From assembly GCF_051903065.1 (NCBI RefSeq), contig NZ_CP178438.1: a DNA stretch of 64,000 nucleotides; one strand, 5' to 3'. The notes below the pieces were generated by a model that saw only the letters and a program-made list of their open reading frames with translations, searched no databases and had not been told where the DNA came from. Source of the DNA: Escherichia coli. Lineage in GTDB: Bacteria > Pseudomonadota > Gammaproteobacteria > Enterobacterales > Enterobacteriaceae. Of this stretch, positions 834 to 18,165 are shown piece by piece (position 1 is the first letter of the stretch; each line of letters starts with the position of its first letter). A program made the translations under genes and the position numbers.

Positions 834-3800
834 ATGAAGAGTTATATCTATCAGGACGAAAAATCACATAAATTCTGGGCGGTGGAGCAGCAGGGAAACG
901 AGTTGCATATCAGCTGGGGAAAAGTTGGTACCCAAGGGCAAAGCCAGGTAAAAAATTTTGCTGATGTTGCAGCAGCGGAAAAAGCGAAACTGAAGCTTAT
1001 CGCGGAGAAAACGAAAAAAGGCTATGTGGAAAATGCTTCAGCAAACGTGCATATCCCCCCCATTACCAAAGCCACTCCTGAAGTTGAAACTTCCCCTGAG
1101 AGTAAAAACCAACGCCCCTGGCTGGCTGATGATGCGGTCATTCGGCTAACTGACGATATTAATCGATTTGCTTTTCCTCATCGCTCTCGCCCCAGAGAGA
1201 TCAATTATCTGCACAAAGATGGTCAAATATGGCAGCTCATCGCGAATAACACCAGAGCATATGATCCCGCCAACAATTACCGTTCTTATCCAGAAAACTG
1301 GCAGCAGGCTTTTGCTGAGTTACAAATGCGAGTTCAGGGTAATCAACAGACAGGGAGTGTGCAATCTGATGCAGCATTGCTCTGGAGTTTCTGGAACTCT
1401 TACTCTGCAGATGAACTGGTCGATGACTTAGTCATTCGCTGTGGTCTGGAAAGTGCCGTTGAAATTGCCCTTCTCGCTCTTCAACTTAGATATAAACCAG
1501 TAAAAGCCGACGTCACCACCATCATTCCCCCTGATCTCAAAGCAGAATCGCTACCGAACTGGCATCAACGTCTATGTCATCATCTTTCACTCGCTTCAGA
1601 AGATGAGTGGCAACGCTGTGTAGATAAGGTACTCGCGGCTATTCCCTCGCTATCCCCAGCACGGCAACCTTTTGCGGCGTTACTGATCCCTGAACGCCCG
1701 GATATCGCCAATGCTATGGCGCTACATTATGCAGATCAAAACGTTCCGGCGATGACCTGGTTAAGTATGATGGTAAGCGATGATGTTGCCCTGGCCATCC
1801 AGGAAAAATATGGTTTCCCACCGCTATATAATGATTTCCGCAAATATCTGGCTACGTTACTGGCAAATAATGGAATGCGTGGTGTAAGCCGGATTCTTCT
1901 CAAGCTACCTGTCGACTATCCCGTAAAATACACGGACCTTTTCACTCACATACACGCCAATGCTGAAAATCTTGTCAAATGGCTATGGAAAACGAATCAC
2001 CCGGATGCGATTCAAATTCTGATCCTCGGTGTAAATGGCAAGAAAAAGCACCTGGAATACTTAAGCAAAGCCTGCCAAAAACATCCCGCTGCGGCTATTG
2101 CCGCTTATGCTACTTTGCTGGCAATACATGAAAATAATGAGTGGCGTAAAGCGCTTGTCAAACTGATTACCGCCACGCCAGAGTTAGTATGCGAGGTCAT
2201 TCCCTGGGTTAATGCTAAGGCGGCAGGCATCTTATCTGAATGTCGTCCGCTGCCAATAGCTGAAGAATGTGAATATGCCACTGTGGATATGTTGCCGGAG
2301 CTGCTGGTCGCTCCACCGTGGGTAATAAATAAGAAAAAGAATGTCATACCCGTATTTGATTTACCGGTACTTCCCATTCCTGCCGTCACGGATATCACAC
2401 CAGGAATTACAGAGTTAATCAGTCATACTGACATATCCAGATTCAGTGAAATCGCGCAATATCAGGCATCACAGCAAACCTTATTTACCGACCTGCCACT
2501 AATTGAAAAAGAAAGCTGGGAGACATCTTTCATTCCTTTTACACCAGAACAACAAATTCTTTGGCAATTAGGTTTTAATGAATGGCTGCATTGCGAAAAT
2601 GACTTACATGAAAAAAAATATATACCGCAAAGCGCTGTTGATGCCTTGTTGCGCTTTGATTTTTCAGCACTAAAAGCTGAGTTTGCGAAATATCACAACA
2701 ATGCCAACAAAAGCTGGAATCTATCTGCGCTTTGTTACTTACCGGGACAACAGGCGATCTCATTTCTCAACCAAATAATCATTGAGGAGCGATATTCAGG
2801 TGAGAAAGAGATTCTGGCGGTTTTTGGTAGTACGGCCATTCCTGCGTTTATGACCTGCTTGCAACGAGATCATCAACGCCTGTGGATATTCACCCTTTTT
2901 ATTGGAGCCAGTGAACTAGCCTTACCAATGGCGCAGCGGTTACAGAAAAAAATAGCTTACAAGGATGCCGTTAATTGGCTGGCAAATAACCCGCGCCATG
3001 CCGCCGCCGGGCTACTGCCTTTGGCGCTGGGCAAACCGTGCCAAAATCGGGAATATGCCCGCCAGGCACTCCTCCTGCTAGTGAAATTAAACCAGCGAGA
3101 AACGATTGAGGAAATCGCCCAAGGATATAATCAACCTGATGTTTTAGCTGCGCTGGCAACATTATTTGATAGCGACCCACTGGAAGAATATCCTGCAAAA
3201 ATCGCCCCACTGCCCGGCTTTTATCAGTTCCCCTTATGGCGCAGACCTCGGCTTAAAAGTAACAACCTGCCTCTGCCAGATGACGCTATGCGCCACCTCG
3301 GCACAATGTTGAGCTTTCCACGCGACATTACCTCCTACGCTGGGCTGGCGATCATCAAAGAGACCTTCACCCGCGAATCACTGGCTGACTTTGGCTGGGA
3401 TCTCTACACGGCATGGACAGAAGCAGGCGCACCCGCAAAAGAGAACTGGGCATTTACCTCGCTGGGGATTCTAGGCAATGACGACACCGCGCGTAAACTA
3501 ACCCCGCTCATCCGCGCCTGGCCGGGTGAATCCCAGCATAAACGCGCGGTTTACGGGCTGGATGTGTTAGCCAGTATCGGTAGCGACATTGCGCTTATGT
3601 TGCTTAATGGCATTGCGCAAAAGATTAAATTCGTTGCATTACAGGAATATGCCAGCGACAGAATCAATATGGTCGCCGAAAATCGCGGACTGACAATGGC
3701 CGAACTGGAAGATCGCCTGGCACCGGATTTAGGGCTTGATAGCAGTGGCTCGCTAATATACTGGATTTCGGCCCCCGCAAATTCACCGTTGGTTTTGACG

Positions 3801-4636
3801 AAACCTTAAAACCTGTAGTGTGCGATGCAAACGGCAAAGTCCTGAAAGATTTACCTAAGACAAACCAGAGCGATGATAAAACACTGGCAACTGACGCAGT
3901 TAATCTCTTCAAACAGTTGAAAAAAGATGTTCGTGCTATCGCCAGCCAGCAAATTACCCGTCTGGAACAGGCTATGTGCCAGCGCAGACGCTGGACGGCA
4001 GAGCAGTTCCGCCTGTTTCTGGTGGAGCATCCGCTGGTACGTCACTTAACCCGACGGCTGTTATGGGGGGTTTATAACGATGAAAACGCCCTTATCATCT
4101 GTTTTCGCGTGGCAGAAGACAGCACTTACAGCGATGCGCAGGATGAGTTATTCACGCTGCCAGCAGGAAACATCGGTATACCGCATGTGCTGGAAATCCC
4201 CCCTGAATCCGCCGCTGCATTCAGGCAAATTTACGTTGATTACGAACTGCTTCCCCCTTTCCAACAGCTCGAACGTGGTAGTTACCACCTTGCTGATAAC
4301 GAACGTAATGTCCATGAATTGTCACGCTGGAACGGACGTCTCTGCCAGGCCGGACGCATTGTCGGGCTGGAACGCAGAGGCTGGCAACGTCTGGAAGAAA
4401 GCGGCAGCGTCTATGCGATGCGCAAATCTACCCCTTATGGTGCTCTCGAACTTGAAACAGAACCTTTTTCATTAATTTATGGCGAAACGGGGTATAGCGA
4501 CCTGCTGCCTGTCGAAAGCGTAAAAATCACCGCCCCTTATGATCGCTATGGTAAACAATCCTCACCCACTTTCTCCGTGCTCGACGACATCACCGCCAGC
4601 GAGCTGATTAACGACATTGAATCACTGTTTGATTAA
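834..4636 (+). pseudogene. molR: WGR-domain/DUF4132 protein (MolR-type), disrupted by a frameshift near 3750-3765
   Basis: ORFs 834..3809 (991 aa) and 3818..4636 (272 aa) together align colinearly with the intact 1249-aa paralog downstream; shifting frame at about 3757 restores the LDFG.RKFTV.FDETLKP motif seen in paralog 2; N-terminal WGR-like sequence MKSYIYQDEKSHKFWAVEQQ. Confidence 0.75.
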
Positions 4637-4648
4637 AAGGATTTAACA

Positions 4649-7600
4649 ATGAAAACCTATATTTATCAGGACGAAAAATCACATAAATTCTGGGCGGTGG
4701 AGCAGCAGAGAAACGAGCTGCATATCAACTGGGGCAAAGTCGGCACTAACGGGCAAAGTCAGGTAAAAAGCTTTGCTGATGCTGCGGCGGCAGAAAAAGC
4801 GGAACTGAAGCTGATTGCGGAGAAGGTGAAGAAGGGGTATGTGGAAGAATTATCTTCACCATCCCAACCCGCAATCAAAATAGAAACGATCGAAGTAGAT
4901 ACAGCTGACGTGGCAGAAACCAAAGTCGTATTTGACCAAAGTATGGTTGTTGAACCTGCTGAGACACCATGCCCGTGGCTGACAGATGATTCCACTATCC
5001 ATCTATCGGAGAAAAAGTCTCAGGGGGCCTTACCTTCCCGACGTTTTCCTGGGGATGCTGTAAGCGAACCACAAGACAGCCTCCTTATGAATTTAGGTCA
5101 GGATATTCATAATCTATCAGGAAAATTAACAACATACGATTTCAGTGCATGTTCTGCTAACTGGCAGCAGAATATCAATGAAGCTCTCGCTAATGGTCCA
5201 CTTTCTCCTGCTGCGTTGGCTGTACAGGTTGTTCTGGTTTCACGTAAATTCTGGGGCGAATGCCCTGAACTCATGGATGAAATTGTCTATGTCTACGGAC
5301 TAGAATTTGCCGTGGATATGTTTATTGCCATGCAATATATCTCGTTCGATTGCACTTATCACAGAACAAGCATACACATAACTTTTCAGCCATTATTAAT
5401 CCACGCACATTGTGTTACCCCCTTTGACGTTCGACTGCGTAAACATTTGGCTCTAGCAGAAGAAACTTTGTGGCAACGCTGTGTAGATAAATTCATTACA
5501 GCTTTGCCTGATATTCCTCCCGTTCAACAACCGATGGTAGCGCTAATGCTACCGGAACGCCCGGAGATTGCAGAAGAAGTCGCACGACGGTTACTGGAGC
5601 AGAAAAATGGCCACACTGTTGAATGGCTGAAACTTGTTGTACAAGAATCTTCCTTGCTCAAAGCACTGGAATCTTATTGCGCGTACGACCTTTTTAATGA
5701 CTATTACCATGGTTGCATCTGGAATGTCACCGTTTTGCAGGAGCAAGGGATTGCCGGAATCGCTCGCTTCGCCCCCTATGCTTATGCTGATCTTTGCGGA
5801 AGTATTCTCGCAGAGATCAATCACCCACAAGCATTAATGCTACTTATACGTGTGTCTGGCAAAACTAAACGCTGCCATGAACGAATGACTACGGCTTGCG
5901 CTGCGTTCCCACACGCAGCACTGGCAGCACTGGCGGAACTTCTAGTGCAAAAAGAAGAGAATAGTTGGCGCATTATGCTAATGACGATGCTTATCTCGCA
6001 ACCGACACTAGCAGAACAGGTCATTCCCTGGCTTTCGACACCCGCAGTTGCAGTGCTGAAATCATGCCAGCAACAACTGACACAGCCCTCAAACCATGCC
6101 TGCGTCGATCTACTGCCTGCCGTATTAGTCTCACCGCCCTGGCTTTCGAAAAAGAAAAAATCTGTAATGCCGGTATTGGATTTAACGCCATTACCGTTGG
6201 AGTCATGCTGTACATTGACCGAGACGGCAGAAAAAGAGATTCATGCAAGGCATCGCTGGCACGCACATCAAATAGACATCGGCCAAAAAGAGGATATTCA
6301 GAACTACCTGGCACGTCTGGGTTTCAATCGCTGGAATAATGGCCAGTATATGAAAGCGCCTGATGCTGCTATAGAGCTCTGGCAAAGGGGAGATTATTCC
6401 GCGCTGATCAGCGAATTTAAAACCTTCTGGCACTCCTATCAACGGGAATGGCAGCTTTACATGTTAGCCGCCCTGCCTATCGAAAAGACAGCGCAGGCGT
6501 GGAATGTCCTCAGTAAAGAGCCACACGTCGGTGTCGAGTTTGTCATGACGCACCTGCAACTCACTGGGTTACAGGGTTTTATTCACTCCTTTTCACGCTA
6601 CCCGCAAGAAGCTCTGCCTGTAGCACAATATTTTGCGGCTATCGAATTAGCGCCACTGATCGCCCGTGCCTTCAACAAACTCAAAACCCTACGACAAGAC
6701 GCCCGTAGCTGGCTGCTAAAATACCCGGAACACGCCATAACCGGCCTGCTGCCTTCGGCGCTCGGCAAAGCCGGTGAAGCACAGGATAACGCTCGCGCTG
6801 CCTTACGTATGCTTACCGAAAACGGTCATCAGCCATTACTGCAAGAAATCGCCCGGCGTTATAACCAGCCGGAAGTAACCGACGCGGTGAACGCTCTGCT
6901 TGCGCTCGATCCCTTAGATAATCACCCGACAAAAATCCCCACTCTTCCGGCCTTTTATCAGCCATCGCTCTGGACGCGCCCGGTATTAAATACAAACGCC
7001 CAATCACTGCCAGATAGCGCACTCCAGCACCTCGGTGAAATGCTCCGCTTCCCTCAGGAAGAGGCCCTGTATCCGGGATTATTGCAGGTGAAAGATGCCT
7101 GTACCGCCGACTCACTGGCTGAATTTGCCTGGGATCTGTTTACCGCCTGGTTGACTGCGGGCGCACCGTCGAAAGAGAGTTGGGCGTTCACTGCGTTAGG
7201 CGTTCTTGGTAACGATGACACCGCCCGCAAACTGACGCCATTAATACGCGCCTGGCCTGGTGAATCCCAGCATAAACGCGCCACCGTTGGGTTGGATATT
7301 CTCGCCGCTATCGGTAGTGATATCGCCCTGATGCAGCTTAACGGTATTGCCCAGAAACTGAAATTCAAAGCATTACAGGAGCGGGCAAAAGAAAAAATTG
7401 CCGACATTGCCGAAAGCCGCGAACTCACGGTGGCAGAGCTTGAAGATCGGTTAGCACCGGATCTCGGTCTGGATGATAACGGTTCGTTGCTGCTGGATTT
7501 CGGCTCACGCCAGTTCACCGTCAGCTTTGATGAAACCTTAAAACCGTTTGTGCGTGATGTTTCTGGCAGCCGTCTGAAAGACCTGCCCAAACCAAACAAA

Positions 7601-8398
7601 AGCGATGATGAATCACAGGCGAACGATGCTGTTAACCGCTACAAATTGCTGAAAAAAGATGCGCGTACCGTCGCCGCCCAGCAGGTAGCAAGGCTGGAAT
7701 CCGCCATGTGCCTGCGCCGCCGCTGGTCGCCGGAAAACTTCCAGCTCTTCCTGGTTGAGCATCCGTTGGTTCGCCACTTAACCCGCCGTCTGATTTGGGG
7801 TGTTTATAGCGCCGAAAACCAGCTACTGGCTTGCTTTCGCGTAGCGGAAGATAACAGCTACAGTACCGCTGACGATGATCTTTTCACCCTGCCGGAAGGC
7901 GATATCTCTATCGGCATTCCTCACGTTCTGGAAATATCACCAACGGATGCTGCCGCCTTTGGTCAGCTTTTTGCCGACTACGAACTGCTACCACCGTTCC
8001 GTCAGCTTGACCGTAACAGTTACGCCCTGACAGAAGCCGAGCGCAACGCCAGCGAACTGACCCGCTGGGCAGGCAGAAAATGCCCGAGCGGTCGGGTCAT
8101 GGGGCTGGCGAATAAAGGCTGGATAAAGGGCACCCCGCAGGATGGAGGCTGGATCGGCTGGATGATCAAACCTCTCGGTCGCTGGTCGTTAATCATGGAA
8201 ATCGATGAAGGTTTTGCGGTAGGCATGTCGCCAGCCGAACTGAGTGCCGAGCAGCTCTTAAGCAAGCTGTGGCTATGGGAAGGCAAAGCAGAAAGCTATG
8301 GCTGGGGGAGTAATTCAACACAGGAAGCGCAGCTCTCCGTACTCGATGCCATCACCGCCAGCGAGCTGATTAACGATATTGAAGCTCTGTTTGAATAA
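4649..8398 (+). CDS. WGR-domain/DUF4132 protein, intact paralog of molR (1249 aa)
   Basis: Tracked ORF; N-terminal about 65 aa nearly identical to copy 1; conserved C-terminal motif ASELINDIEALFE; start 12 bp after the end of copy 1. Confidence 0.8.
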   Translation: MKTYIYQDEKSHKFWAVEQQRNELHINWGKVGTNGQSQVKSFADAAAAEKAELKLIAEKVKKGYVEELSSPSQPAIKIETIEVDTADVAETKVVFDQSMVVEPAETPCPWLTDDSTIHLSEKKSQGALPSRRFPGDAVSEPQDSLLMNLGQDIHNLSGKLTTYDFSACSANWQQNINEALANGPLSPAALAVQVVLVSRKFWGECPELMDEIVYVYGLEFAVDMFIAMQYISFDCTYHRTSIHITFQPLLIHAHCVTPFDVRLRKHLALAEETLWQRCVDKFITALPDIPPVQQPMVALMLPERPEIAEEVARRLLEQKNGHTVEWLKLVVQESSLLKALESYCAYDLFNDYYHGCIWNVTVLQEQGIAGIARFAPYAYADLCGSILAEINHPQALMLLIRVSGKTKRCHERMTTACAAFPHAALAALAELLVQKEENSWRIMLMTMLISQPTLAEQVIPWLSTPAVAVLKSCQQQLTQPSNHACVDLLPAVLVSPPWLSKKKKSVMPVLDLTPLPLESCCTLTETAEKEIHARHRWHAHQIDIGQKEDIQNYLARLGFNRWNNGQYMKAPDAAIELWQRGDYSALISEFKTFWHSYQREWQLYMLAALPIEKTAQAWNVLSKEPHVGVEFVMTHLQLTGLQGFIHSFSRYPQEALPVAQYFAAIELAPLIARAFNKLKTLRQDARSWLLKYPEHAITGLLPSALGKAGEAQDNARAALRMLTENGHQPLLQEIARRYNQPEVTDAVNALLALDPLDNHPTKIPTLPAFYQPSLWTRPVLNTNAQSLPDSALQHLGEMLRFPQEEALYPGLLQVKDACTADSLAEFAWDLFTAWLTAGAPSKESWAFTALGVLGNDDTARKLTPLIRAWPGESQHKRATVGLDILAAIGSDIALMQLNGIAQKLKFKALQERAKEKIADIAESRELTVAELEDRLAPDLGLDDNGSLLLDFGSRQFTVSFDETLKPFVRDVSGSRLKDLPKPNKSDDESQANDAVNRYKLLKKDARTVAAQQVARLESAMCLRRRWSPENFQLFLVEHPLVRHLTRRLIWGVYSAENQLLACFRVAEDNSYSTADDDLFTLPEGDISIGIPHVLEISPTDAAAFGQLFADYELLPPFRQLDRNSYALTEAERNASELTRWAGRKCPSGRVMGLANKGWIKGTPQDGGWIGWMIKPLGRWSLIMEIDEGFAVGMSPAELSAEQLLSKLWLWEGKAESYGWGSNSTQEAQLSVLDAITASELINDIEALFE

Positions 8399-8407
8399 GG
8401 AAAGAGC

Positions 8408-11400
8408 ATGGACAAGGAATTACCGTGGCTGGCGGATAACGCCCAAGTGGAACTGAAATATAAAAAAGGCAAAACACCACTCAGCCATCGCAATTGGCCG
8501 GGCGAACCGGTGCCTGTTATCACTGAAAGCCTCATCCAGACACTGGGTGATGAATTGCTACAAAAAGCAGAGAAGAAAAAAAACATTGTCTGGCGTTATG
8601 AAAATTTTTCACTGGAGTGGCAGTCCGCCATTACGCAGGCCATCAACTTGATCGGCGAACACAAACCCTCAGTCCCGGCCCGCACAATGGCGGCGCTAGC
8701 CTGTATCGCGCAAAATGACAGCCAACAGTTGCTCGACGAAATCGTCCAACAAGAGGGGCTGGAATATGCGACTGAGGTGGTGATTGCACGCCAGTTTATT
8801 GCACGGTGTTATGAAAGTGATCCTCTGGTAGTCACATTGCAGTATCAGAACGAGGACTATGGCTATGGTTATCGCTCAGAAACCTATAACGAATTCGATC
8901 TCCGACTGCGTAAACACCTCTCTCTGGCAGAGGAAAGCTGCTGGCAGCGTTGCGCCGACAAACTCATTGCCGCACTGCCAGGAATAACCAAAGTTCGCCG
9001 TCCTTTTATTGCGCTGATCCTCCCGGAAAAGCCTGAAATAGCCAATGAACTCGCCAGTCTTGAAAGCTCCCGGTCAAGTCTCCATTCAAAGGAGTGGTTA
9101 AAGGTCGTTGCTACTGATAATACGGCGGTAAAAAAACTCGAACGATACTGGGGCCTGGACGTATTTAGCGATCGCGAAGCCAGCTACATGTCACAAAAAA
9201 ACCACTTCGGCTACGCGGCCTGCGCCGCCCTTTTGCGCGAACAAGGACTGGCAGCCATTCCGCGCCTCGCGATGTATGCCCATAAAGAAGATTGCGGCAG
9301 TCTGTTGGTACAAATTAACCATCCGCAGGTCATCCACACCTTGCTACTGGTGGCTGATAAAAACAAACCCAGCCTGCAACGTGTGGCTAAATACAGTAAA
9401 AACTTCCCCCACGCGACGCTCGCGGCACTGGCAGAACTGCTGGCGTTAAAAGAACCACCAGCCCGCCCTGGTTATCCAATCATCGAAGACAAAAAGCTGC
9501 CTGCCCAGCAAAAAGCACGCGATGAATACTGGCGTACGCTGTTACAAACGCTGATGGCATCGCAGCCACAACTGGTAGAAGAGGTGATGCAGTGGTTAAG
9601 TACTCAAGCCCGGGCAGTACTGAATAGTTATTTATTGGCACCGCCCAAACCGGTTATTGATGGCACCGATAACAGCAATCTGCCTGAAATCCTCGTTTCA
9701 CCACCGTGGCGTAGTAAGAAAAAAATGACAGCTCCACGTCTTGATTTGGCACCGCTCGAATTAACCCCGCAAGTTTACTGGCAACCAGGCGAACAAGAGA
9801 GGCTTGCCTCCACTGAGTCTGCCCGTTATTTCAGCACGGAATCTCTTGCGGAACGCATGGAACAAAAAAGTGGGCGAGTTGTATTACAGGAACTGGGTTT
9901 TGGGGATGATGTATGGCTGTTTCTGAATTATATACTCCCCGGAAAACTGGATGCTGCACGCAATTCACTCATTGTTCAGTGGCATTACTACCAGGGGCGG
10001 GTTGAAGAGATCCTGAATGGCTGGAACTCCCCGGAAGCACAATTAGCAGAACAGGCGCTCCGCAGCGGTCACATAGAAGCGTTAATTAACATATGGGAAA
10101 ATGACAACTACTCACGTTATCGTCCGGAAAAGAGTGTCTGGAACCTGTATTTATTGGCACAGTTGCCGCGTGAGATGGCTTTGACCTTCTGGCTGCGTAT
10201 CAATGAGAAAAAACATCTGTTCGCGGGTGAGGACTATTTTCTCAGTATCCTCGGATTGGATGCGCTACCAGGTCTGCTGTTGGCTTTTTTACATCGTCCA
10301 AAAGAAACATTTCCGTTAATTTTAAATTTTGGCGCAACAGAACTGGCCCTGCCCGTTGCCCGCGTCTGGCACCGTTTTGCGGGCCAGCGTAATCTGGCTC
10401 GCCAGTGGATTTTACAATGGCCGGAACATACGGCTACTGCACTTATCCCTCTTGTCTTTATCAAACCCAGCGATAATAGCGAAGCCGCATTACTTGCCCT
10501 GCGTTTACTGTACGAACAGGGACATGGCGAGTTGCTGCAAACCGTGGCAAACCGCTGGCAACGCGCTGATGTATGGCCTGCCCTGGAGCAGTTGCTTAAA
10601 CAGGGTCCAATGGACATTTACCCGGCACGCATTCCAAAAGCCCCTGATTTCTGGCATCCGCAAATGTGGTCCAGGCCGCGCCTTATCACTAATAATCAAC
10701 CTGTTACCGATGACGCTCTGGAAATTATCGGCGAAATGCTGCGCTTTACCCAGGGGGGACGTTTTTATAGCGGTCTGGAACAACTGAAAACGTTTTGCCA
10801 GCCACAAACGCTGGCCGCTTTTGCCTGGGATCTCTTCACTGCGTGGCAACAAGCTGGTGCCCCCGCAAAAGACAACTGGGCATTTCTGGCGTTAAGTCTC
10901 TTTGGTGACGAAAGCACGGCTCGGGATCTGACGACACAGATCCTCGCCTGGCCACAAGAAGGCAAATCTGCCCGTGCTGTCAGCGGCCTGAACATCCTTA
11001 CCCTGATGAATAATGATATGGCGCTGATGCAGCTGCATCATATATCGCAACGGGCTAAATCCCGCCCCTTACGTGATAACGCGGCGGAATTTCTTCAGGT
11101 GGTCGCAGAAAATCGCGGGCTAAGCCAGGAAGAGCTAGCGGACAGATTAGTCCCAATCCTGGGCCTTGATGATCCGCAGGCGTTGAGTTTTGATTTTGAT
11201 CCCCGGCAGTTTACCGTTCGCTTCGATGAAAACCTCAACCCGGTTATCTTTGATCAGCAAAACGTTCGCCAGAAAAGTGTTCCCCGGTTGCGTGCCGATG
11301 ACGATCAACTGAAAGCGCCCGAGGCACTGGCCCGACTAAAAGGGCTAAAAAAAGATGCTACTCAGGTGAGCAAAAACCTGCTCCCGCGTCTTGAAGCTGC

Positions 11401-12040
11401 CCTACGTACCACCCGACGCTGGTCGCTGGCAGATTTTCATTCTCTGTTTGTTAATCATCCCTTTACCCGCCTGGTTACCCAGCGATTAATATGGGGGGGT
11501 TATCCGGCAAATGAACCGCGTCGTTTACTCAACGCCTTTCGTGTGGCCGCAGAGGGGGAGTTCTGCAATGCGCAGGATGAGCCCATTGACCTTCCTGCGG
11601 ATGCTCTGATTGGCATTGCCCACCCGTTAGAAATGACAGCAGAAATGCGCAGTGAATTTGCACAGCTTTTTGCCGATTACGAAATTATGCCGCCTTTTCG
11701 CCAGTTGTCGCGCCGCACGGTGCTGCTCACACCTGACGAGTCAACCAGTAACAGCCTGACTCGCTGGGAAGGTAAATCCGCTACCGTTGGGCAACTTATG
11801 GGAATGCGATACAAAGGCTGGGAATCAGGCTATGAGGACGCATTTGTCTATGACCTGGGTGAGTACCGGCTGGTCCTTAAGTTTTCACCCGGTTTTAACC
11901 ACTACAATGTTGATAGCAAAGCGCTAATGAGCTTCCGTTCTCTTCGAGTGTACCGTGACAATAAATCCGTCACTTTTGCCGAACTTGATGTGTTTGATTT
12001 GAGAGAGGCGTTAAGCGCACCTGACGTCATTTTCCATTAA
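8408..12040 (+). CDS. yehI: DUF4132 protein, third paralog, lacking the N-terminal WGR module (1210 aa)
   Basis: Tracked ORF; begins at the PWLADNA motif that is about residue 95 of the other two paralogs; start 9 bp after the stop of paralog 2; shares the conserved central and C-terminal blocks (HPLVRHLTRRLIWG-like, DLFTAW..AGAP). Confidence 0.8.
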   Translation: MDKELPWLADNAQVELKYKKGKTPLSHRNWPGEPVPVITESLIQTLGDELLQKAEKKKNIVWRYENFSLEWQSAITQAINLIGEHKPSVPARTMAALACIAQNDSQQLLDEIVQQEGLEYATEVVIARQFIARCYESDPLVVTLQYQNEDYGYGYRSETYNEFDLRLRKHLSLAEESCWQRCADKLIAALPGITKVRRPFIALILPEKPEIANELASLESSRSSLHSKEWLKVVATDNTAVKKLERYWGLDVFSDREASYMSQKNHFGYAACAALLREQGLAAIPRLAMYAHKEDCGSLLVQINHPQVIHTLLLVADKNKPSLQRVAKYSKNFPHATLAALAELLALKEPPARPGYPIIEDKKLPAQQKARDEYWRTLLQTLMASQPQLVEEVMQWLSTQARAVLNSYLLAPPKPVIDGTDNSNLPEILVSPPWRSKKKMTAPRLDLAPLELTPQVYWQPGEQERLASTESARYFSTESLAERMEQKSGRVVLQELGFGDDVWLFLNYILPGKLDAARNSLIVQWHYYQGRVEEILNGWNSPEAQLAEQALRSGHIEALINIWENDNYSRYRPEKSVWNLYLLAQLPREMALTFWLRINEKKHLFAGEDYFLSILGLDALPGLLLAFLHRPKETFPLILNFGATELALPVARVWHRFAGQRNLARQWILQWPEHTATALIPLVFIKPSDNSEAALLALRLLYEQGHGELLQTVANRWQRADVWPALEQLLKQGPMDIYPARIPKAPDFWHPQMWSRPRLITNNQPVTDDALEIIGEMLRFTQGGRFYSGLEQLKTFCQPQTLAAFAWDLFTAWQQAGAPAKDNWAFLALSLFGDESTARDLTTQILAWPQEGKSARAVSGLNILTLMNNDMALMQLHHISQRAKSRPLRDNAAEFLQVVAENRGLSQEELADRLVPILGLDDPQALSFDFDPRQFTVRFDENLNPVIFDQQNVRQKSVPRLRADDDQLKAPEALARLKGLKKDATQVSKNLLPRLEAALRTTRRWSLADFHSLFVNHPFTRLVTQRLIWGGYPANEPRRLLNAFRVAAEGEFCNAQDEPIDLPADALIGIAHPLEMTAEMRSEFAQLFADYEIMPPFRQLSRRTVLLTPDESTSNSLTRWEGKSATVGQLMGMRYKGWESGYEDAFVYDLGEYRLVLKFSPGFNHYNVDSKALMSFRSLRVYRDNKSVTFAELDVFDLREALSAPDVIFH

Positions 12041-12100: not shown

Positions 12101-12418
12101 ATGATCGTGCAAAAAGAGCTGGTTGCTATTTACGATTATGAGGTCCCTGTACCTGAAGATCCGTTTTCCTTCAGACTTGAGATCCATAAATGCTCTGAAT
12201 TATTTACAGGTTCCGTCTATCGACGGGAGCGATTCCGGCTACATCCAACATTTCATCAACGTGATCGAGAAGATGCTGACCCGCTAATAAATGATGCGTT
12301 GATTTATATAAGAGATGAGTGTATTGATGAGCGGAAATTACGAGGTAAATCACCTGAAACTGTAATAGCAATTTTTAATCGTGAACTACAGAATATATTC
12401 AACCAAGAAATAGAATAA
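12101..12418 (+). CDS. yehK: Small uncharacterised protein (105 aa)
   Basis: Tracked ORF in an AT-rich segment; position between yehI and yehL. Confidence 0.6.
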   Translation: MIVQKELVAIYDYEVPVPEDPFSFRLEIHKCSELFTGSVYRRERFRLHPTFHQRDREDADPLINDALIYIRDECIDERKLRGKSPETVIAIFNRELQNIFNQEIE

Positions 12419-12527
12419 TATACTCTAGATAATTCAAGTCGCAGCACATGCAACTTGAAGTATGACGAGTATAGCTTTATTAAAGGGGGAAGCGGTTTTC
12501 CCCCTTAGATGCGTTTCAATTTGCCCG

Positions 12528-12617
12528 TTACTTCAACAAATCAATCAACCGTAACAGAGCCACTAATAACTCCAGTACGGCAATGAGCACGATTAACTTT
12601 TGTGTCAGCGTGTCCAT
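12528..12617 (-). CDS. zorO: Type I toxin, 29-aa hydrophobic peptide MDTLTQKLIVLIAVLELLVALLRLIDLLK
   Basis: Hand translation of the minus strand: ATG at 12617-12615 preceded by AAGGAG Shine-Dalgarno, stop TAA at 12530-12528; matches the ZorO/ZorP peptide as I recall it; assignment of O versus P to copy 1 versus copy 2 is arbitrary. Confidence 0.75.
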   Translation of the reverse strand: MDTLTQKLIVLIAVLELLVALLRLIDLLK

Positions 12618-12798
12618 CCGCTCTCCTTATTAAGGAGCGCAACACCAGCACCTTACCCTTACACTGCCTGTCGATACTGGTTTACGTATGTTGGTACGAA
12701 ACGTTGCTCTCCGGATCAGGGCACCGCCTGCGGCACCACCCGTCCAGCAGCCAGGACTTAAAATTGGTCCGATCCGGCACAACCTCCCAACGGGCAGG

Positions 12799-12826
12799 AT
12801 TATAAATCTCATTCACTGAATTGCAA
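12799..12826 (-). promoter_or_regulatory. Predicted sigma70 promoter for the toxin mRNA (gives a 5' UTR of about 174 nt)
   Basis: Minus-strand -10 TATAAT (plus 12799-12804) and -35 TTGCAA (12821-12826) with 16-bp spacer; TSS predicted near 12791. Confidence 0.5.
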
Positions 12827-12849
12827 TGGAGTGTGGATATGGTTATAAT
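12821..12849 (+). promoter_or_regulatory. Predicted sigma70 promoter for the antitoxin sRNA
   Basis: -35 TTGCAA (12821-12826), 17-bp spacer, -10 TATAAT (12844-12849). Confidence 0.6.
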
Positions 12850-12855
12850 TTATTC

Positions 12856-12938
12856 GTTGGTACGAAATGTTGCACAATCAGCAAGTTAGCGTCACTGTAG
12901 TAAATAAAAGAACCTGCCTCACCAGCAGGTTTTTTTAT
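12856..12938 (+). ncRNA. orzO: Antitoxin small RNA (OrzO-like), about 80 nt
   Basis: Bounded by the consensus promoter and an intrinsic terminator; nt 12856-12873 (GTTGGTACGAAATGTTGC) can pair over 18 nt (one G-U) with the toxin 5' UTR encoded at 12689-12706. Confidence 0.7.
12912..12937 (+). terminator. Intrinsic terminator of the antitoxin sRNA
   Basis: Stem ACCTGC / GCAGGT, loop CTCACCA, followed by TTTTTTT. Confidence 0.75.
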
Positions 12939-13135
12939 TTTCTGCGATCTACTTTCCAGATATTTTTTGCCAATAGCCCACCATAAATATTCACATCCCG
13001 GTCAAATGGTGCGTTGAATATAAAATCGATGAACTTATAAATAAACATGAGTTATATGATGAATTAATAAAAACAGTAATCATTTTATTAAAGGGGGAAG
13101 CGGTTTTCCCCCTTAGATGCGTTTCAATTTGCCCG

Positions 13136-13225
13136 TTACTTCAACAAATCAATCAACCGTAACAGAGCTACTAATAGCTCCAGTACGGCAATGAGCACGG
13201 TTAACTTTTGTGTCAGCGTGTCCAT
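13136..13225 (-). CDS. zorP: Type I toxin, 29-aa hydrophobic peptide MDTLTQKLTVLIAVLELLVALLRLIDLLK
   Basis: Hand translation; ATG at 13225-13223, stop at 13138-13136; differs from copy 1 by one residue (T9 versus I9). Confidence 0.75.
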   Translation of the reverse strand: MDTLTQKLTVLIAVLELLVALLRLIDLLK

Positions 13226-13406
13226 CCGCTCTCCTTATTAAGGAGCGCAACACCAGCACCTTACCCTTACACTGCCTGTCGATACTGGTTTACGTATGTT
13301 GGACCACGATGTTGCACTCCGGATCAGGGCACCACCTGCAGCACCACCCGTCCGGTAGCCAGGACTTGAAATAGGTTCGATCCGGCGCAACGTCCCAACG
13401 GTCTGG

Positions 13407-13434
13407 ATTATAAATCTCATTATCTTAATTGCAA
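13407..13434 (-). promoter_or_regulatory. Predicted sigma70 promoter for the second toxin mRNA
   Basis: Same architecture as copy 1: minus-strand -10 TATAAT (plus 13407-13412), -35 TTGCAA (13429-13434). Confidence 0.5.
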
Positions 13435-13457
13435 CGGGGTCCAGCCGTGGTTATAAT
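13429..13457 (+). promoter_or_regulatory. Predicted sigma70 promoter for the second antitoxin sRNA
   Basis: -35 TTGCAA (13429-13434), 17-bp spacer, -10 TATAAT (13452-13457). Confidence 0.6.
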
Positions 13458-13463
13458 TCGTTC

Positions 13464-13546
13464 GTTGGAACACGATGTTGCACAGGCTGTGGTGTTAGGC
13501 CTGAAAATAGTAAATAAAAGAACCTGCCTCACCAGCAGGTTTTTTT
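13464..13546 (+). ncRNA. orzP: Antitoxin small RNA (OrzP-like), about 80 nt
   Basis: Promoter plus terminator; 13464-13483 (GTTGGAACACGATGTTGCAC) is complementary to the UTR segment encoded at 13298-13317 with one mismatch. Confidence 0.7.
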
Positions 13547-13547
13547 A
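13522..13547 (+). terminator. Intrinsic terminator of the second antitoxin sRNA
   Basis: Stem ACCTGC / GCAGGT followed by TTTTTTT. Confidence 0.75.
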
Positions 13548-13657
13548 TTTACTATGATCTGCTTTCCAGATATTTTTTGCTCAAACAACTAATGCGCCAA
13601 ACATTTATTGCGCGTAAAATATCGTTTATTTCATTAATACATTTCAGGGATGAATAT

Positions 13658-14746
13658 ATGTCACCGCAGAATAATCATCTGCAGCGTCCGCCTGCTGCTG
13701 TGTTATACGCCGATGAACTGGCAAAATTAAAACAAAATGATACCGCACCTTGCCCGCCCGGTTGGCAGTTAAGTTTGCCTGCGGCCCGTGCTTTTATCCT
13801 TGGCGATAGCGCGCAAAATATTAGCCGTAAAGTGGTGATTAGTCCCTCCGCTGTCGAACGTATGTTAGTCACTCTTGCCACCGGACGCGGTTTGATGTTG
13901 GTGGGGGAACCTGGCACCGCAAAATCTCTCCTGTCTGAATTACTGGCAACCGCTATTAGCGGCGATGCCGGGTTAACCATCCAGGGCGGTGCATCTACTA
14001 CCGAAGATCAAATCAAGTACGGCTGGAACTACGCCCTGCTTATCAATCATGGTCCATCAACGGAAGCGCTGGTCCCTGCCCCGCTTTACCAGGGAATGCG
14101 CGACGGCAAAATCGTCCGTTTTGAAGAGATAACGCGTACACCGCTGGAAGTGCAAGACTGTCTGTTAGGTATGCTTTCTGACAGGGTGATGACGGTGCCG
14201 GAACTCACTGGTGAAGCCAGTCAGCTCTATGCGCGAGAAGGCTTTAATATTATTGCCACTGCCAATACCCGCGATCGCGGCGTCAATGAAATGAGTGCTG
14301 CGCTAAAGCGTCGCTTCGATTTTGAAACTGTCTTTCCGATTATGGATTTCGCCCAGGAGCTGGAGCTTGTCGCCAGTGCTTCGGCGCGTTTGCTGGCCCA
14401 TAGCGGTATTCCGCATAAAGTGCCTGACGCGGTACTGGAGTTACTGGTCCGCACTTTCCGCGATCTGCGTGCCAACGGCGAAAAGAAAACGTCAATGGAT
14501 ACACTAACAGCGATTATGTCCACCGCTGAAGCCGTGAACGTGGCCCACGCTGTGGGCGTCCGCGCCTGGTTTTTGGCGAATCGCGCAGGTGAGCCAGCCG
14601 ATCTGGTGGACTGTATTGCCGGAACCATCGTTAAAGATAACGAAGAAGATCGCGCTCGTCTGCGCCGTTACTTCGAACAGCGTGTCGCCACACATAAAGA
14701 AGCTCACTGGCAGGCTTATTATCAAGCCCGCCACCGCCTGCCGTGA
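13658..14746 (+). CDS. yehL: MoxR-family AAA+ ATPase (362 aa)
   Basis: Walker A GEPGTAKS; start chosen at MSPQNNH within tracked ORF 13577..14746. Confidence 0.85.
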   Translation: MSPQNNHLQRPPAAVLYADELAKLKQNDTAPCPPGWQLSLPAARAFILGDSAQNISRKVVISPSAVERMLVTLATGRGLMLVGEPGTAKSLLSELLATAISGDAGLTIQGGASTTEDQIKYGWNYALLINHGPSTEALVPAPLYQGMRDGKIVRFEEITRTPLEVQDCLLGMLSDRVMTVPELTGEASQLYAREGFNIIATANTRDRGVNEMSAALKRRFDFETVFPIMDFAQELELVASASARLLAHSGIPHKVPDAVLELLVRTFRDLRANGEKKTSMDTLTAIMSTAEAVNVAHAVGVRAWFLANRAGEPADLVDCIAGTIVKDNEEDRARLRRYFEQRVATHKEAHWQAYYQARHRLP

Positions 14747-14756
14747 GGAAAGATGC

Positions 14757-17036
14757 ATGAGCGAGCCGTTAATTGTCGGCATCCGGCATCATAGTCCGGC
14801 CTGCGCCCGGCTGGTGAAATCGTTAATCGAAAGCCAGCGGCCACGATACGTGTTGATTGAAGGCCCGGCTGATTTTAATGACCGGGTAGACGAACTGTTT
14901 TTAGCCCACCAGCTTCCGGTAGCTATTTACAGTTATTGCCAGTATCAGGACGGTGCAGCCCCCGGGCGTGGTGCCTGGACGCCATTTGCTGAATTTTCGC
15001 CGGAGTGGCAGGCGCTACAAGCCGCTCGTCGTATTCAGGCACAAACTTACTTCATCGATTTGCCTTGCTGGGCACAGAGTGAAGAAGAGGACGATTCGCC
15101 TGATACGCAAGAGGAAAGCCAGACCTTGCTGCTGCGTGCCACCCGCATGGATAACAGCGATACCCTGTGGGATCACTTGTTCGAAGATGAAAGCCAGCAA
15201 ACTGCATTACCCTCTGCACTGGCGCACTATTTTGCCCAACTGCGGGGCGATTTCCCCGGCGATGCACTCAATCGTCAGCGCGAAGCCTTTATGGCTCGCT
15301 GGATTGGATGGGCGGTGCAGCAAAATAATGGCGACGTGTTAGTCGTCTGCGGTGGCTGGCACGCTCCGGCACTGGCAAAAATGTGGCGCGAATGCCCGCA
15401 GGACATTAACAAGCCAGAATTGCCCTCGCTGGCAGATGCCGTTACAGGTTGTTATCTCACACCCTACAGTGAAAAGCGCCTTGATGTGCTGGCAGGATAC
15501 CTTTCAGGAATGCCTGCCCCGGTCTGGCAAAGCTGGTGCTGGCAGTGGGGCTTACAGCAGGCGGGAGAACAACTGCTAAAAACGGTTCTTACCCGTTTGC
15601 GCCAACACCACTTGCCTGCTTCGACCGCGGATATGGCTGCCGCTCATCTGCATGCGATGGCGCTGGCACAGTTGCGCGGACATAAACTACCGTTACGCAC
15701 TGACTGGCTGGATGCCATAGCAGGCTCGCTGATTAAAGAAGCCCTGAACGCGCCGTTGCCGTGGAGCTATCGCGGAGTTATTCATCCCGACACCGATCCG
15801 ATTCTGCTAACGTTGATAGACACATTAGCGGGTGACGGATTCGGTAAACTTGCCCCTTCTACGCCACAACCGCCTCTGCCAAAAGATGTCACCTGCGAAC
15901 TGGAACGTACCGCAATCTCTCTTCCGGCGGAGCTTACCTTAAATCGCTTTAACCCCAATGGACTAGCGCAAAGTCAGGTGTTACATCGGCTGGCAATACT
16001 GGAGATCCCAGGGATTGTACGCCAGCAGGGAAGCACACTGACACTTGCAGGCAACGGTGAAGAACGCTGGAAATTAACCCGCCCGCTTAGCCAGCATGCG
16101 GCATTGATTGAGGCCGCCTGCTTTGGTGCCACACTCCAGGAAGCCGCACGCCATAAATTAGAAGCCGATATGCTGGACGCGGGTGGAATCGGCAGTATCA
16201 CCACATGTCTTAGCCAGGCGGCGTTAGCGGGTCTGGCGTCCTTCAGTCAACAATTACTGGAGCAACTCACATTATTAATCGCCCAGGAAAATCAATTTGC
16301 CGAAATGGGGCAGGCGCTGGAAGTCCTTTATGCCTTATGGCGGTTAGATGAAATCAGCGGTATGCAAGGCGCGCAGATATTGCAGACGACGTTATGTGCG
16401 GCTATCGATCGCACGCTCTGGCTGTGTGAATCCGACGGCAAACCGGATGAAAAGGAGTTTCACGCTCACCTGCATAGCTGGCAGGCGCTTTGCCATATCC
16501 TGCGCGATCTACATAGCGGCGTTAATTTACCCGGCGTTTCTCTTTCTGCGGCGGTGGCCTTACTGGAACGCCGCAGTCAGGCAATTCATGTCCCGGCGCT
16601 GGATCGCGGCGCGGCTCTTGGCGCACTGATGCGTCTGGAACATCCCAACGCCAGTGCCGAAGCGGCGCTGACAATGCTGGCGCAGTTATCCCCGGCACAA
16701 TCCGGCGAGGCGCTGCACGGTTTGCTGGCGCTCGCCCGTCATCAACTGGCCTGCCAGCCGGCATTTATCGCCGGTTTCAGCAGTCATTTAAATCAACTGA
16801 ATGACGACGATTTTATTAACGCCCTGCCCGATTTACGCGCGGCGATGGCCTGGCTACCACCACGAGAACGCGGGACGCTGGCGCATCAGGTGCTTGAGCA
16901 TTATCAACTGGCGCAACTTCCCGTTTCGGCGCTGCAAATGCCGTTGCATTGTCCACCACAAGCCATTGCACATCATCAACAACTCGAACAGCAGGCACTG
17001 GCATCGCTGCAAAACTGGGGAGTTTTCCATGTCTGA
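14757..17036 (+). CDS. yehM: Uncharacterised protein of the yehLMPQ operon (759 aa)
   Basis: Start MSEPLIVG 10 bp after the yehL stop; no domain I can name from sequence. Confidence 0.8.
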   Translation: MSEPLIVGIRHHSPACARLVKSLIESQRPRYVLIEGPADFNDRVDELFLAHQLPVAIYSYCQYQDGAAPGRGAWTPFAEFSPEWQALQAARRIQAQTYFIDLPCWAQSEEEDDSPDTQEESQTLLLRATRMDNSDTLWDHLFEDESQQTALPSALAHYFAQLRGDFPGDALNRQREAFMARWIGWAVQQNNGDVLVVCGGWHAPALAKMWRECPQDINKPELPSLADAVTGCYLTPYSEKRLDVLAGYLSGMPAPVWQSWCWQWGLQQAGEQLLKTVLTRLRQHHLPASTADMAAAHLHAMALAQLRGHKLPLRTDWLDAIAGSLIKEALNAPLPWSYRGVIHPDTDPILLTLIDTLAGDGFGKLAPSTPQPPLPKDVTCELERTAISLPAELTLNRFNPNGLAQSQVLHRLAILEIPGIVRQQGSTLTLAGNGEERWKLTRPLSQHAALIEAACFGATLQEAARHKLEADMLDAGGIGSITTCLSQAALAGLASFSQQLLEQLTLLIAQENQFAEMGQALEVLYALWRLDEISGMQGAQILQTTLCAAIDRTLWLCESDGKPDEKEFHAHLHSWQALCHILRDLHSGVNLPGVSLSAAVALLERRSQAIHVPALDRGAALGALMRLEHPNASAEAALTMLAQLSPAQSGEALHGLLALARHQLACQPAFIAGFSSHLNQLNDDDFINALPDLRAAMAWLPPRERGTLAHQVLEHYQLAQLPVSALQMPLHCPPQAIAHHQQLEQQALASLQNWGVFHV

Positions 17037-18165
17037 ACTGAACGATCTTCTGACCAACCGTGAGCTACAACGCTGGCGATTAATTCTTGGCGAAGCGGCA
17101 GAAACGACGCTTTGTGGGCTGGATGACAACGCCCGGCAGATAGACCACGCGCTGGAGTGGCTGTATGGGCGCGATCCTGAACGGCTCCAGCGTGGTGAAC
17201 GTTCCGGTGGATTAGGTAGCTCAAATCTCACCACCCCTGAGTGGATCAACAGTATTCACACGCTGTTTCCGCAACAGGTGATTGAGCGGCTGGAAAGCGA
17301 TGCCGTACTGCGCTACGGCATTGAAGATGTGGTGACGAATCTCGACGTGCTGGAACGTATGCAGCCTTCTGAAAGCCTGCTACGCGCCGTTTTGCACACC
17401 AAACATCTGATGAACCCCGAAGTACTGGCTGCCGCCCGCCGGATAGTGCGCCAGGTTGTTGAAGAAATTATGGCTCGACTGGCAAAGGAAGTTCGTCAGG
17501 CTTTTTCTGGTGTCCGCGATCGCCGTCGCCGCTCATCTATTCCACTGGCGCGAAACTTTGATTTCAAAAGTACTCTTCGCGCCAATCTGCAACACTGGCA
17601 CCCGCAACACGGCAAGTTGTATATCGAATCCCCCCGCTTTAACAGCCGCATTAAACGCCACAGTGAACAATGGCAACTGGTCTTACTGGTTGATCAAAGC
17701 GGATCGATGGTGGACTCGGTGATCCACTCTGCGGTGATGGCGGCCTGTTTGTGGCAGTTACCCGGCATTCGTACCCATCTGGTGGCGTTTGACACCAGCG
17801 TGGTTGATCTCACGGCAGACGTTGCCGATCCGGTAGAGTTATTAATGAAAGTGCAATTAGGCGGCGGAACCAATATCGCCAGTGCCGTGGAATATAGTCG
17901 GCAACTTATTGAACAACCAGCGAAAAGCGTCATTATCCTCGTGAGCGATTTTTACGAAGGGGGTTCATCATCATTACTGACGCATCAGGTGAAAAAGTGT
18001 GTCCAGAGCGGCATCAAAGTGCTGGGATTGGCAGCGCTCGATAGCACAGCTACGCCTTGCTATGACCGCGATACGACCCAGGCGCTGGTTAATGTCGGCG
18101 CACAAATAGCCGCCATGACGCCGGGCGAGCTGGCATCATGGCTTGCGGAGAATCTTCAGTCATGA
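17029..18165 (+). CDS. yehP: von Willebrand factor A (VWA) domain protein (378 aa)
   Basis: MIDAS-type motif DQSGSM; start MSELNDLL overlaps the yehM stop by 8 bp. Confidence 0.85.
   Translation: MSELNDLLTNRELQRWRLILGEAAETTLCGLDDNARQIDHALEWLYGRDPERLQRGERSGGLGSSNLTTPEWINSIHTLFPQQVIERLESDAVLRYGIEDVVTNLDVLERMQPSESLLRAVLHTKHLMNPEVLAAARRIVRQVVEEIMARLAKEVRQAFSGVRDRRRRSSIPLARNFDFKSTLRANLQHWHPQHGKLYIESPRFNSRIKRHSEQWQLVLLVDQSGSMVDSVIHSAVMAACLWQLPGIRTHLVAFDTSVVDLTADVADPVELLMKVQLGGGTNIASAVEYSRQLIEQPAKSVIILVSDFYEGGSSSLLTHQVKKCVQSGIKVLGLAALDSTATPCYDRDTTQALVNVGAQIAAMTPGELASWLAENLQS

Follow-up and report, generated by a model that had tools for sequence, protein, structure and literature searches.

Ancient tandem paralogs of a WGR-DUF4132 gene at the molR-yehI locus of Escherichia coli, at the head of a MoxR-VWA gene cassette

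MoxR-class AAA+ ATPases and von Willebrand factor A (VWA) proteins with a metal ion-dependent adhesion site (MIDAS) form chaperone pairs, among them RavA-ViaA, CoxD-CoxE, NorQ-NorD, and CbbQ-CbbO. RavA-ViaA is documented as a MoxR-VWA pair (PMC3893208). Here we describe a 64,000-nucleotide stretch of E. coli DNA (contig NZ_CP178438.1, called the window below) in which genes for a MoxR-class ATPase (yehL) and a VWA protein (yehP) lie downstream of three tandem genes for large proteins of the DUF4132 family, called copy 1, copy 2, and yehI. The segment that holds the three genes (positions 834 to 12040) is 100% identical to that of E. coli strain 23CRST027, and the gene order (metG, copy 1, copy 2, yehI, yehK, a 1.2-kb intergenic region, yehL, yehM, yehP, and yehQ) identifies the locus as the molR(yehH)-yehI region of E. 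coli. We consider it probable that the locus reflects an ancient triplication within a five-gene cassette, later modified by a private frameshift, by exchange between the WGR-coding blocks of copies 1 and 2, and by deletion of copy 1 through recombination, and that the DUF4132 proteins serve the cassette as adaptors or clients.

The three paralogs and their gene cassette

The array consists of the following features, given by position in the window:

834-4636, + strand: copy 1, encoding a WGR domain, a helical region, and DUF4132; a pseudogene in this strain (open reading frames [ORFs] and translations; "frameshifted" in RefSeq)
834-1031, + strand: WGR-coding 5' block of copy 1, a substrate of recombination or conversion
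4649-8398, + strand: copy 2, intact, 1249 amino acids, ortholog of K-12 molR/yehH (Pfam; alignment to K-12 molR)
4649-4846, + strand: WGR-coding 5' block of copy 2
8408-12040, + strand: yehI, 1210 amino acids, DUF4132 without WGR (Pfam; spacer read directly)
12101-12418, + strand: yehK, 105 amino acids, last gene of the array (RefSeq annotation)

Copy 1 is split into an ORF at 834-3809 (991 amino acids) and a shifted frame that ends at 4636 (272 amino acids from a GTG at 3818); the downstream frame holds a complete DUF4132 domain (Pfam E = 1.4e-50), and RefSeq labels the same gene of strain 23CRST027 "frameshifted". Copy 2 carries WGR at residues 7-67 and DUF4132 at residues 973-1158 (E = 1.1e-51), and YehI carries DUF4132 at residues 954-1138 (E = 1.9e-46) and has no match to the WGR profile in Pfam. 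Copy 2, YehI, and the downstream frame of copy 1 all belong to the DUF4132 family (PF13569); the WGR family (PF05406), recognized by profile and by fold, does not include YehI. The yehI ATG lies 9 nucleotides (nt) after the copy 2 stop codon, and the ORF opens at a PWLADN motif that follows the WGR linker in copies 1 and 2; the alignment of YehI begins at about residue 95 of copy 1 and about residue 109 of copy 2. BLASTP identity is 44% between copies 1 and 2 over their full length, 37% between copy 2 and YehI, and 32% between copy 1 and YehI (all E ≤ 1e-167). A preliminary description of this DNA, made from the letters and ORFs, had proposed three tandem paralogs, the first frameshifted, the second intact, and the third without WGR and starting near residue 95 of the others behind a 9-bp spacer; ORFs, translations, alignments, the RefSeq flag, and Pfam agree with it on each of these points.

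The genes beyond the 1.2-kb intergenic region are as follows:

13658-14746, + strand: yehL, MoxR-class AAA+ ATPase (Pfam AAA_5, E = 2.6e-34)
14757-17036, + strand: yehM, DUF5682 protein (RefSeq annotation; the homolog at locus L017 carries PF18934)
17029-18165, + strand: yehP, VWA_CoxE protein with an intact MIDAS, DQSGS, at residues 222-226 (Pfam E = 1.5e-71; translation)
18162-20165, + strand: yehQ, SWIM zinc-finger protein (Pfam SWIM, E = 0.0013, borderline)

YehQ also contains two CxCxnCxH motifs, at residues 70-80 and 166-176. The DUF4132 family comprises 2,667 clusters (50% identity, E ≤ 1e-30). When its gene context was scanned with one genome per species, 73 loci were obtained, of which the 59 spanning 15 kb or more were used. 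A YehL homolog adjoins the DUF4132 gene in 45 of these 59 loci from other species, and homologs of YehL, YehM, YehP, and YehQ are all encoded on the same strand as the DUF4132 gene in 41; the combination of an AAA_5 gene with a VWA_CoxE/MIDAS gene that defines MoxR-VWA systems is thus present here and is kept in 41 to 45 of the 59. The cassette occurs in Gamma- and Betaproteobacteria, Mycolicibacterium, Trichlorobacter, and Holophagales, the myxobacterial loci of the scan have the DUF4132 gene without the full cassette, and a metagenomic homolog with 35% identity lies in an operon of overlapping ORFs with AAA_5, DUF5682, and VWA_CoxE genes. Most loci of other species hold a single WGR-DUF4132 gene. 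Judged by this shared gene order, molR/yehI and yehLMPQ are one conserved five-gene cassette found in several phyla, and the gene triplicated in E. coli would be its first member, in the order WGR-helical-DUF4132, YehL, YehM, YehP, YehQ.

Tandem arrays of 4 to 8 DUF4132 genes, most of them without WGR, were also observed in Massilia and Duganella (L049, L053, L066, L067, L074, L084, L085, and L090); these arrays sometimes end at a yehLMPQ cassette, and several orphan copies lie elsewhere in the same genomes.

The five-gene system is chromosomal. None of 50,697 phage records gave a match, and the matches in 31 of 72,556 plasmid records were mostly to megaplasmids or mislabelled chromosomes, and a mobile origin of the locus was rejected on these grounds.

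Age of the triplication and recombination between copies

Triplets of two genes with WGR followed by one without it are found in E. whittamii, other Escherichia species, Klebsiella oxytoca, and K. spallanzanii, and in a neighbor-joining distance tree each of the three E. coli genes falls together with its counterpart from Klebsiella. The presence in Klebsiella of orthologs of all three copies shows the triplication to be ancient, with three copies and a WGR-less third as the ancestral state of Escherichia. Since the third copies of Klebsiella begin at the same PPWLADD motif as YehI, the WGR-less form of YehI is old and maintained and not a product of decay; WGR-less copies with this start motif also occur in the Duganella and Massilia arrays, which reach eight genes. 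The absence of WGR from YehI had been listed in the preliminary description among the different fates of the copies; it does not stem from recent decay and is an architecture that is old, shared with Klebsiella, and recurrent in those arrays.

Similarity between copies 1 and 2 varies along their length. The first 50 codons have 88% amino acid identity and a third-codon-position identity of 0.74, the middle has 15-45% and about 0.14-0.54, and the C-terminal third has 60-86% and 0.3-0.6; synonymous divergence (dS, Nei-Gojobori) is saturated everywhere but in nt 1-300. The WGR 5' blocks are 85% identical in nucleotide sequence. The 66 N-terminal residues, earlier described as near-identical, are conserved, but at 88% identity with 8 differences the term was somewhat generous, and the divergent middles are as described. 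Copies 1 and 2 end in ...ITASELINDIE[S/A]LF[D/E]. The C terminus of YehI is ...DVFDLREALSAPDVIFH (terminal residues of the translation, ...DLREALSAPDVIFH), in which the invariant Glu and a few further positions of the motif remain; the ending ASELINDIE.LF., once attributed to all three copies, is therefore confined to copies 1 and 2 and degenerate in YehI. The pattern of conserved ends around divergent cores thus stands for the paralogs, with the exception of the C-terminal motif of YehI. In homologs of other genera (40-60% identity), the C-terminal core and a terminal motif, LDxIxASELxxDxExL, are kept.

Exchange between the paralogs was mapped with polymorphisms in 8 copy 1 and 7 copy 2 alleles from three-copy strains. 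In nt 1-150, 12 polymorphisms are common to both paralogs versus 2 fixed differences, and in the conserved 3' third (nt 2701-3600) the counts are 25 shared versus 177 fixed (Fisher p = 8e-9 for the contrast). This difference shows that exchange between paralogs is real and confined to the first ~150 nt, that is, to the WGR-coding 5' block. Conservation of the C-terminal third, by comparison, reflects ordinary purifying selection acting on a core common to the family. Its synonymous sites are saturated, most of the differences are fixed, and the motif recurs across the family; gene conversion was rejected as its cause on these grounds. Of the repeated gene conversion that the preliminary description put forward, the part in the first ~150 nt stands, but the C-terminal block and the ASELINDIE motif are not conversion tracts.

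The number of copies differs among strains, as a survey of E. coli genomes of the kind earlier called for showed. The locus was detected in 5,421 of 5,426 complete genomes and the middle of copy 1 in 1,643 of the 5,426 (30%), in allele classes of 83% to 100% identity; about 70% of the genomes, K-12 included, are without copy 1. At the same place between metG and yehK, K-12 has two genes instead of three, a molR pseudogene and a yehI that is ~95% identical to that of the window in nucleotide sequence. For most of its length, K-12 molR is orthologous to copy 2 (92% identity over the full length to the copy 2 allele of strain AF34), although its N-terminal half belongs to an allele class different from that of copy 2 in the window, and its first ~165 nt are of copy 1 type. 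It has a frameshift and a stop codon of its own, whereas copy 2 is intact in the window and copy 1 is present but frameshifted.

Such a chimeric molR, with a copy 1-type 5' end and a copy 2 body, was found in all six sampled two-copy genomes including K-12. In each of the six, copy 1-type sequence (MRHFIYQ...) fills the first ~110-165 nt and copy 2-type sequence follows, with diagnostic sites changing from one to the other between alignment columns 15 and 168. In some two-copy genomes the first ~110-150 nt are identical to copy 1 alleles of particular three-copy strains, and the 5' blocks match different copy 1 alleles, with at least two crossover positions. (Copy 1 of the window is itself unlike most strains in its first 11 nt, encoding MKSY... 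versus MRHF....) The switch from copy 1 to copy 2 in all six genomes shows that the common two-gene arrangement is a 3.8-kb deletion of copy 1 by recombination between the WGR blocks, which left a chimera behind. K-12 "molR" is accordingly a recombinant of two ancestral paralogs, which explains what the pseudogene of that name is.

The lesion that makes copy 1 a pseudogene in the window is a single event:

3756-3760, + strand: frameshift in copy 1, a 2-bp TA duplication (ATA to ATATA) just upstream of the DUF4132 domain

It was defined against the intact copy 1 alleles of strains AF34 and OV24 and an O157 allele that is undisrupted at this site. Intact alleles read GGCTCGCT(G)ATACTGG, and the window reads GGCTCGCTAATATACTGG. 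The exact 81-mer around the frameshift occurs in 3 of the 5,426 complete genomes; in the remaining listed matches (27 shown), the aligned stretch measures 79 bases against 81 in the query and is thus 2 nt shorter. Since the site has no repeat tract, neither phase variation nor a programmed shift fits it, and both a phase-variable contingency gene and programmed frameshifting were rejected for this rare, private variant. The copy 1 frameshift is a recent private null or hypomorphic allele. The "decaying copy" of the preliminary description therefore comes down to one 2-bp insertion private to three genomes, and the copy that is broken differs between strains.

Allelic diversity, broken copies, and regulation

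The paralogs are far more variable than the genes around them. Mean nucleotide identities among five three-copy strains were as follows:

Neighboring genes: apbC, 97.5%; metG, 96.3%; yehC and yehD, ~97%
Array: copy 1, 89.3%; copy 2, 82.4%; yehI, 93.9%

On these values the locus ranks with the more polymorphic parts of the core chromosome of E. coli, and within the genes variation is greatest in the helical N-terminal half. Copy 2 proteins within Escherichia (1233-1264 amino acids) fall into classes at 97%, 90%, 83%, 80%, and 73-76% identity, and the N-terminal halves of different classes cannot be aligned by blastn. Between alleles, dS is 0.1-0.5 and reaches saturation in mosaic segments. The ratio of nonsynonymous to synonymous divergence (dN/dS or omega; Nei-Gojobori, 300-nt windows) is 0.04-0.64 overall; the N-terminal half lies at 0.2-0.6, the C-terminal third lies at 0.04-0.2, and no 300-nt window exceeded 1 save one in which dS was 0.02 and almost no substitutions were present. 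With no meaningful window above 1, the diversity looks like deep mosaic allele classes under relaxed but real constraint rather than demonstrable positive selection, and pervasive positive selection was not found by this measure.

These results bear on the account given in the preliminary description, in which the family is under diversifying selection and/or repeated gene conversion, termini are kept alike while cores diversify, and one copy decays. Paralog exchange does occur in the 5' WGR block, the cores are highly divergent both between paralogs and between alleles, and the N-terminal half has a higher omega than the C-terminal third, as the regional dN/dS comparison proposed at the time brought out; the genes are also, as that account would have it, much more polymorphic than their neighbors. 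However, omega stays below 1, the C-terminal conservation is family-wide and accompanied by saturated synonymous sites and a large excess of fixed over shared differences, the motif is not retained in YehI, and the decay is a single rare insertion. The account is possible, but we do not favor it over an ancient triplication with exchange limited to the WGR block.

A disrupted copy was present in 6 of 14 sampled RefSeq records, and all copies were intact in the other 8. Copy 1 was disrupted in 2 records, copy 2 in 3, and yehI in 2, with two disrupted copies (1 and 2) in O157. The copy that is broken thus varies by strain and can be any of the three, which answers the question, raised earlier, of which copy is disrupted across strains. 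In 184 isolates of sublineage L1a of sequence type ST131, the metG/DUF4132/yeh region carries an insertion of TnMB1860, a blaCTX-M-15 transposon (PMC9334617); a clinically successful clone thus tolerates a disrupted locus. Lesions in neighboring genes were also seen in RefSeq, some of which may be assembly errors: yehL is frameshifted in AF34 (L003, 13693-14236), and yehK is frameshifted in OV24 (L004, 12767-13083), S87 (L010, 7781-8020), and TUM13881 (L013, 20512-20828).

A possible control element precedes the array:

807-826, strand not assigned: LexA-box-like palindrome AACTGGATATAAATACAGGG, 8 nt upstream of the copy 1 ATG

It matches the LexA consensus at 15 of 20 positions and has the CTG arm as well as the CAG arm; no other CTG-N10-CAG site in the 64-kb window reaches 15 matches. 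A variant of the site was found in 13 of 13 sampled E. coli loci and in K. oxytoca; the K-12-type variant AACTGGATAAAATTACAGGG (13/20), seen in 13 other sampled strains, is further from the consensus than that of the window. A LexA-box-like site upstream is thus common to K-12 molR and the window, and the array has a box in its promoter region, as genes of the LexA (SOS) regulon do. A published list of LexA-regulated genes includes molR as one whose SOS box is known (PMC6590174), and BglJ-RcsB activates the molR promoter (PMC3950696). With the array behind this box, induction by DNA damage is probable in Escherichia and Klebsiella. Copy 1, copy 2, and yehI are separated by spacers of 12 and 9 nt with Shine-Dalgarno-like sequences, and no strong + strand terminators were found, which suggests that the three genes share a single transcript; cotranscription of yehK is suggested likewise. 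By tblastn, yehK appears Escherichia-specific, its matches being restricted to Escherichia loci.

The yehK-yehL intergenic region (12419-13657) contains tandem zorO/zorP-type type I toxin ORFs on the - strand (12528-12617 and 13136-13225; 29 amino acids, MDTLTQKL[I/T]VLIAVLELLVALLRLIDLLK) and two OrzO-P antitoxin small RNAs (Rfam RF02083) on the + strand (12863-12936 and 13471-13546). This module is known from O157:H7 and is absent from K-12, where the yehK-yehL spacer is 0.3 kb. Elsewhere in the window, Rfam matches at the gathering threshold were an naRNA4 (RF02564; 51782-51859, - strand) and a Peptidase-S11 RNA motif (RF03039; 33984-34064, - strand). In strain 23CRST027, whose genome matches the window, the yehB fimbrial usher gene upstream of the window (L001, 2116-6437) is broken into pieces by an IS903B-like and an IS1A insertion.

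Predicted structure, possible function, and described relatives

Copy 2 was modelled with AlphaFold in two halves, residues 1-660 (mean predicted local distance difference test [pLDDT] score, 85.4) and 631-1249 (pLDDT, 94.7). The predicted structure comprises the WGR domain, a disordered linker (residues 70-102), a long helical region, an alpha/beta C-terminal part, and a terminal helix that carries the conserved motif. The modelled WGR fold matches that of PARP1 and PARP3, and the helical region gave weak ARM/HEAT-like matches in the fold search, which recognized no catalytic fold in the models and found no solved relative of the alpha/beta part. Neither of the two DUF components of the cassette (DUF4132 and DUF5682) has a solved structure. 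Family-wide identity to copy 2 is 16-54% in the N-terminal half and 41-95% in the C-terminal half.

These features would suit noncatalytic scaffolds made of a nucleic acid-binding WGR head, a flexible linker, an ARM/HEAT-like solenoid, the DUF4132 alpha/beta domain, and an acidic C-terminal motif. Because their C-terminal half is conserved and the acidic motif at its end is invariant, the DUF4132 proteins are the likeliest candidates to act as alternative adaptors or clients for a putative YehL/YehP AAA+-MIDAS machine. By analogy with MoxR-VWA pairs, the YehL ATPase and the YehP MIDAS protein might remodel or load a partner; the conserved C-terminal half of the DUF4132 protein could dock to this machine, with the Ser-Glu motif at its end as a candidate MIDAS ligand, while specificity would come from the fast-evolving N-terminal solenoid, and a WGR head, in those proteins that have one, would provide a tether to nucleic acid. 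A more specific version, which we put forward only as speculation and regard as rather unlikely, would make the DUF4132 proteins interchangeable, fast-evolving specificity subunits, either sensors or adaptors, of a DNA damage-inducible MoxR-VWA-SWIM machine that acts on nucleic acid-associated targets in immunity or genome surveillance; if it were true, balancing or fluctuating selection would maintain the tandem paralogs, the deep allele classes, and the recurrent gain and loss of copies.

It is similarly doubtful that the cassette is a conflict system, directed against phages or mobile elements, with the DUF4132 paralogs as hypervariable sensors under fluctuating or balancing selection. Much about the array would fit: diversity that is localized and extreme relative to the flanks, deep allele classes within one species, variable copy number with tandem expansions up to 8 copies in Massilia, the broken copies in sampled genomes, and an SOS-linked position next to a type I toxin-antitoxin pair. 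But PADLOC-DB 2.0 matched none of the eight full-length cassette proteins (copy 2, YehI, YehK, YehL, YehM, YehP, and YehQ had no match, and copy 1 had only a marginal WGR_XIII match in the WGR region, E = 0.005, with no stretch passing), and assignment to a defence system was rejected; in addition, no effector domain is recognizable in the models, the locus has a fixed position on the chromosome in nearly all E. coli genomes, it is absent from the phage records and rare on plasmids, and dN/dS is below 1. NCBIfam gave only weak WGR, GvpN, and chelatase-like matches, below the cut-off.

That the genes are functionless relics drifting to loss, with diversity and pseudogenes as signs of relaxed constraint, is quite improbable. 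The lesions of K-12 molR and of copies 1 and 2 in O157 and the transposon tolerated in ST131 sublineage L1a are what one would expect of relics, and no reported function for yehI was found in the literature; searches for DUF4132, DUF5682, yehI, and yehL with MoxR returned the ST131 transposon site, a zor/orz toxin-antitoxin paper, an SOS gene list, and the BglJ-RcsB work, and no functional study. Constraint is nevertheless evident in the C-terminal third and keeps dN/dS below 0.65 elsewhere, more than half of the sampled genomes have all copies intact, both the family and the five-gene setting persist across phyla, and the AlphaFold models are confident and well folded. Least probable is the historical annotation of MolR as a transcriptional regulator of molybdate metabolism, which survives in some sources as "molybdate metabolism regulator" or "MolR family transcriptional regulator" and could appeal to YehP, of the VWA family named for CoxE, a protein that acts in maturation of a Mo-Cu enzyme, but which faces the absence of any DNA-binding regulator domain (helix-turn-helix or other) in the Pfam and fold searches, a K-12 namesake that is a pseudogene, and a conserved neighborhood without molybdate genes.

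Several points weigh against the reading that we prefer, ancient triplication in a cassette with the DUF4132 proteins as adaptors or clients. The function of the cassette is drawn only from gene neighborhood, domain content, and the MoxR-VWA analogy, and in 14 of the 59 long loci no YehL lies within 10 kb, most of these 14 being Massilia arrays or orphan copies. A LexA box is found in 2 of 69 upstream regions outside E. coli, both from Escherichia/Klebsiella, and LexA control as a family-wide feature was rejected. If copy 1 had been deleted only once, long ago, later allelic recombination could give the appearance of several independent deletions. The shared-polymorphism counts rest on only 8 copy 1 and 7 copy 2 alleles, and alignments of the divergent middles are uncertain; the collection of complete genomes is biased to clinical lineages, so that the 30% and 70% are not population frequencies; and the pseudogene flags come from 14 sampled RefSeq records, some of whose "frameshifts" may be assembly errors.

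The genes described here were already annotated, and ancient duplication, private frameshift, and unequal recombination are ordinary processes. The finding is of moderate interest for the cassette and its hypervariable, multiplied component, and the cassette is a testable entry point into a large uncharacterised MoxR-VWA system.

Three described relatives help to place the locus. In unequal homologous recombination and gene conversion of tandem paralogs generally, as here, a short common block with shared polymorphisms is the site of the deletion junction and yields a chimeric gene. The array differs in that homology extends over only ~150-200 nt, at 82-88% identity, in paralogs that are otherwise saturated, and exchange is therefore confined to one protein module. 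Unlike PARP1, PARP2, and PARP3, the E. coli proteins have no catalytic PARP domain and carry the motif W-G-K instead of W-G-R; their WGR domain, which paralogs of the YehI type do without, is connected in the models by a disordered linker to the helical scaffold that follows it. The MoxR/VWA chaperone pairs are the closest match to the cassette as a whole, since yehL (AAA_5, MoxR class) lies in an operon with yehP (VWA_CoxE, intact MIDAS). Unlike these pairs, the yeh system has no client enzyme encoded near it and adds to the ATPase and the VWA protein a DUF5682 protein, a SWIM protein, and a WGR-solenoid-DUF4132 protein of ~1,250 amino acids that is both multiplied and hypervariable.

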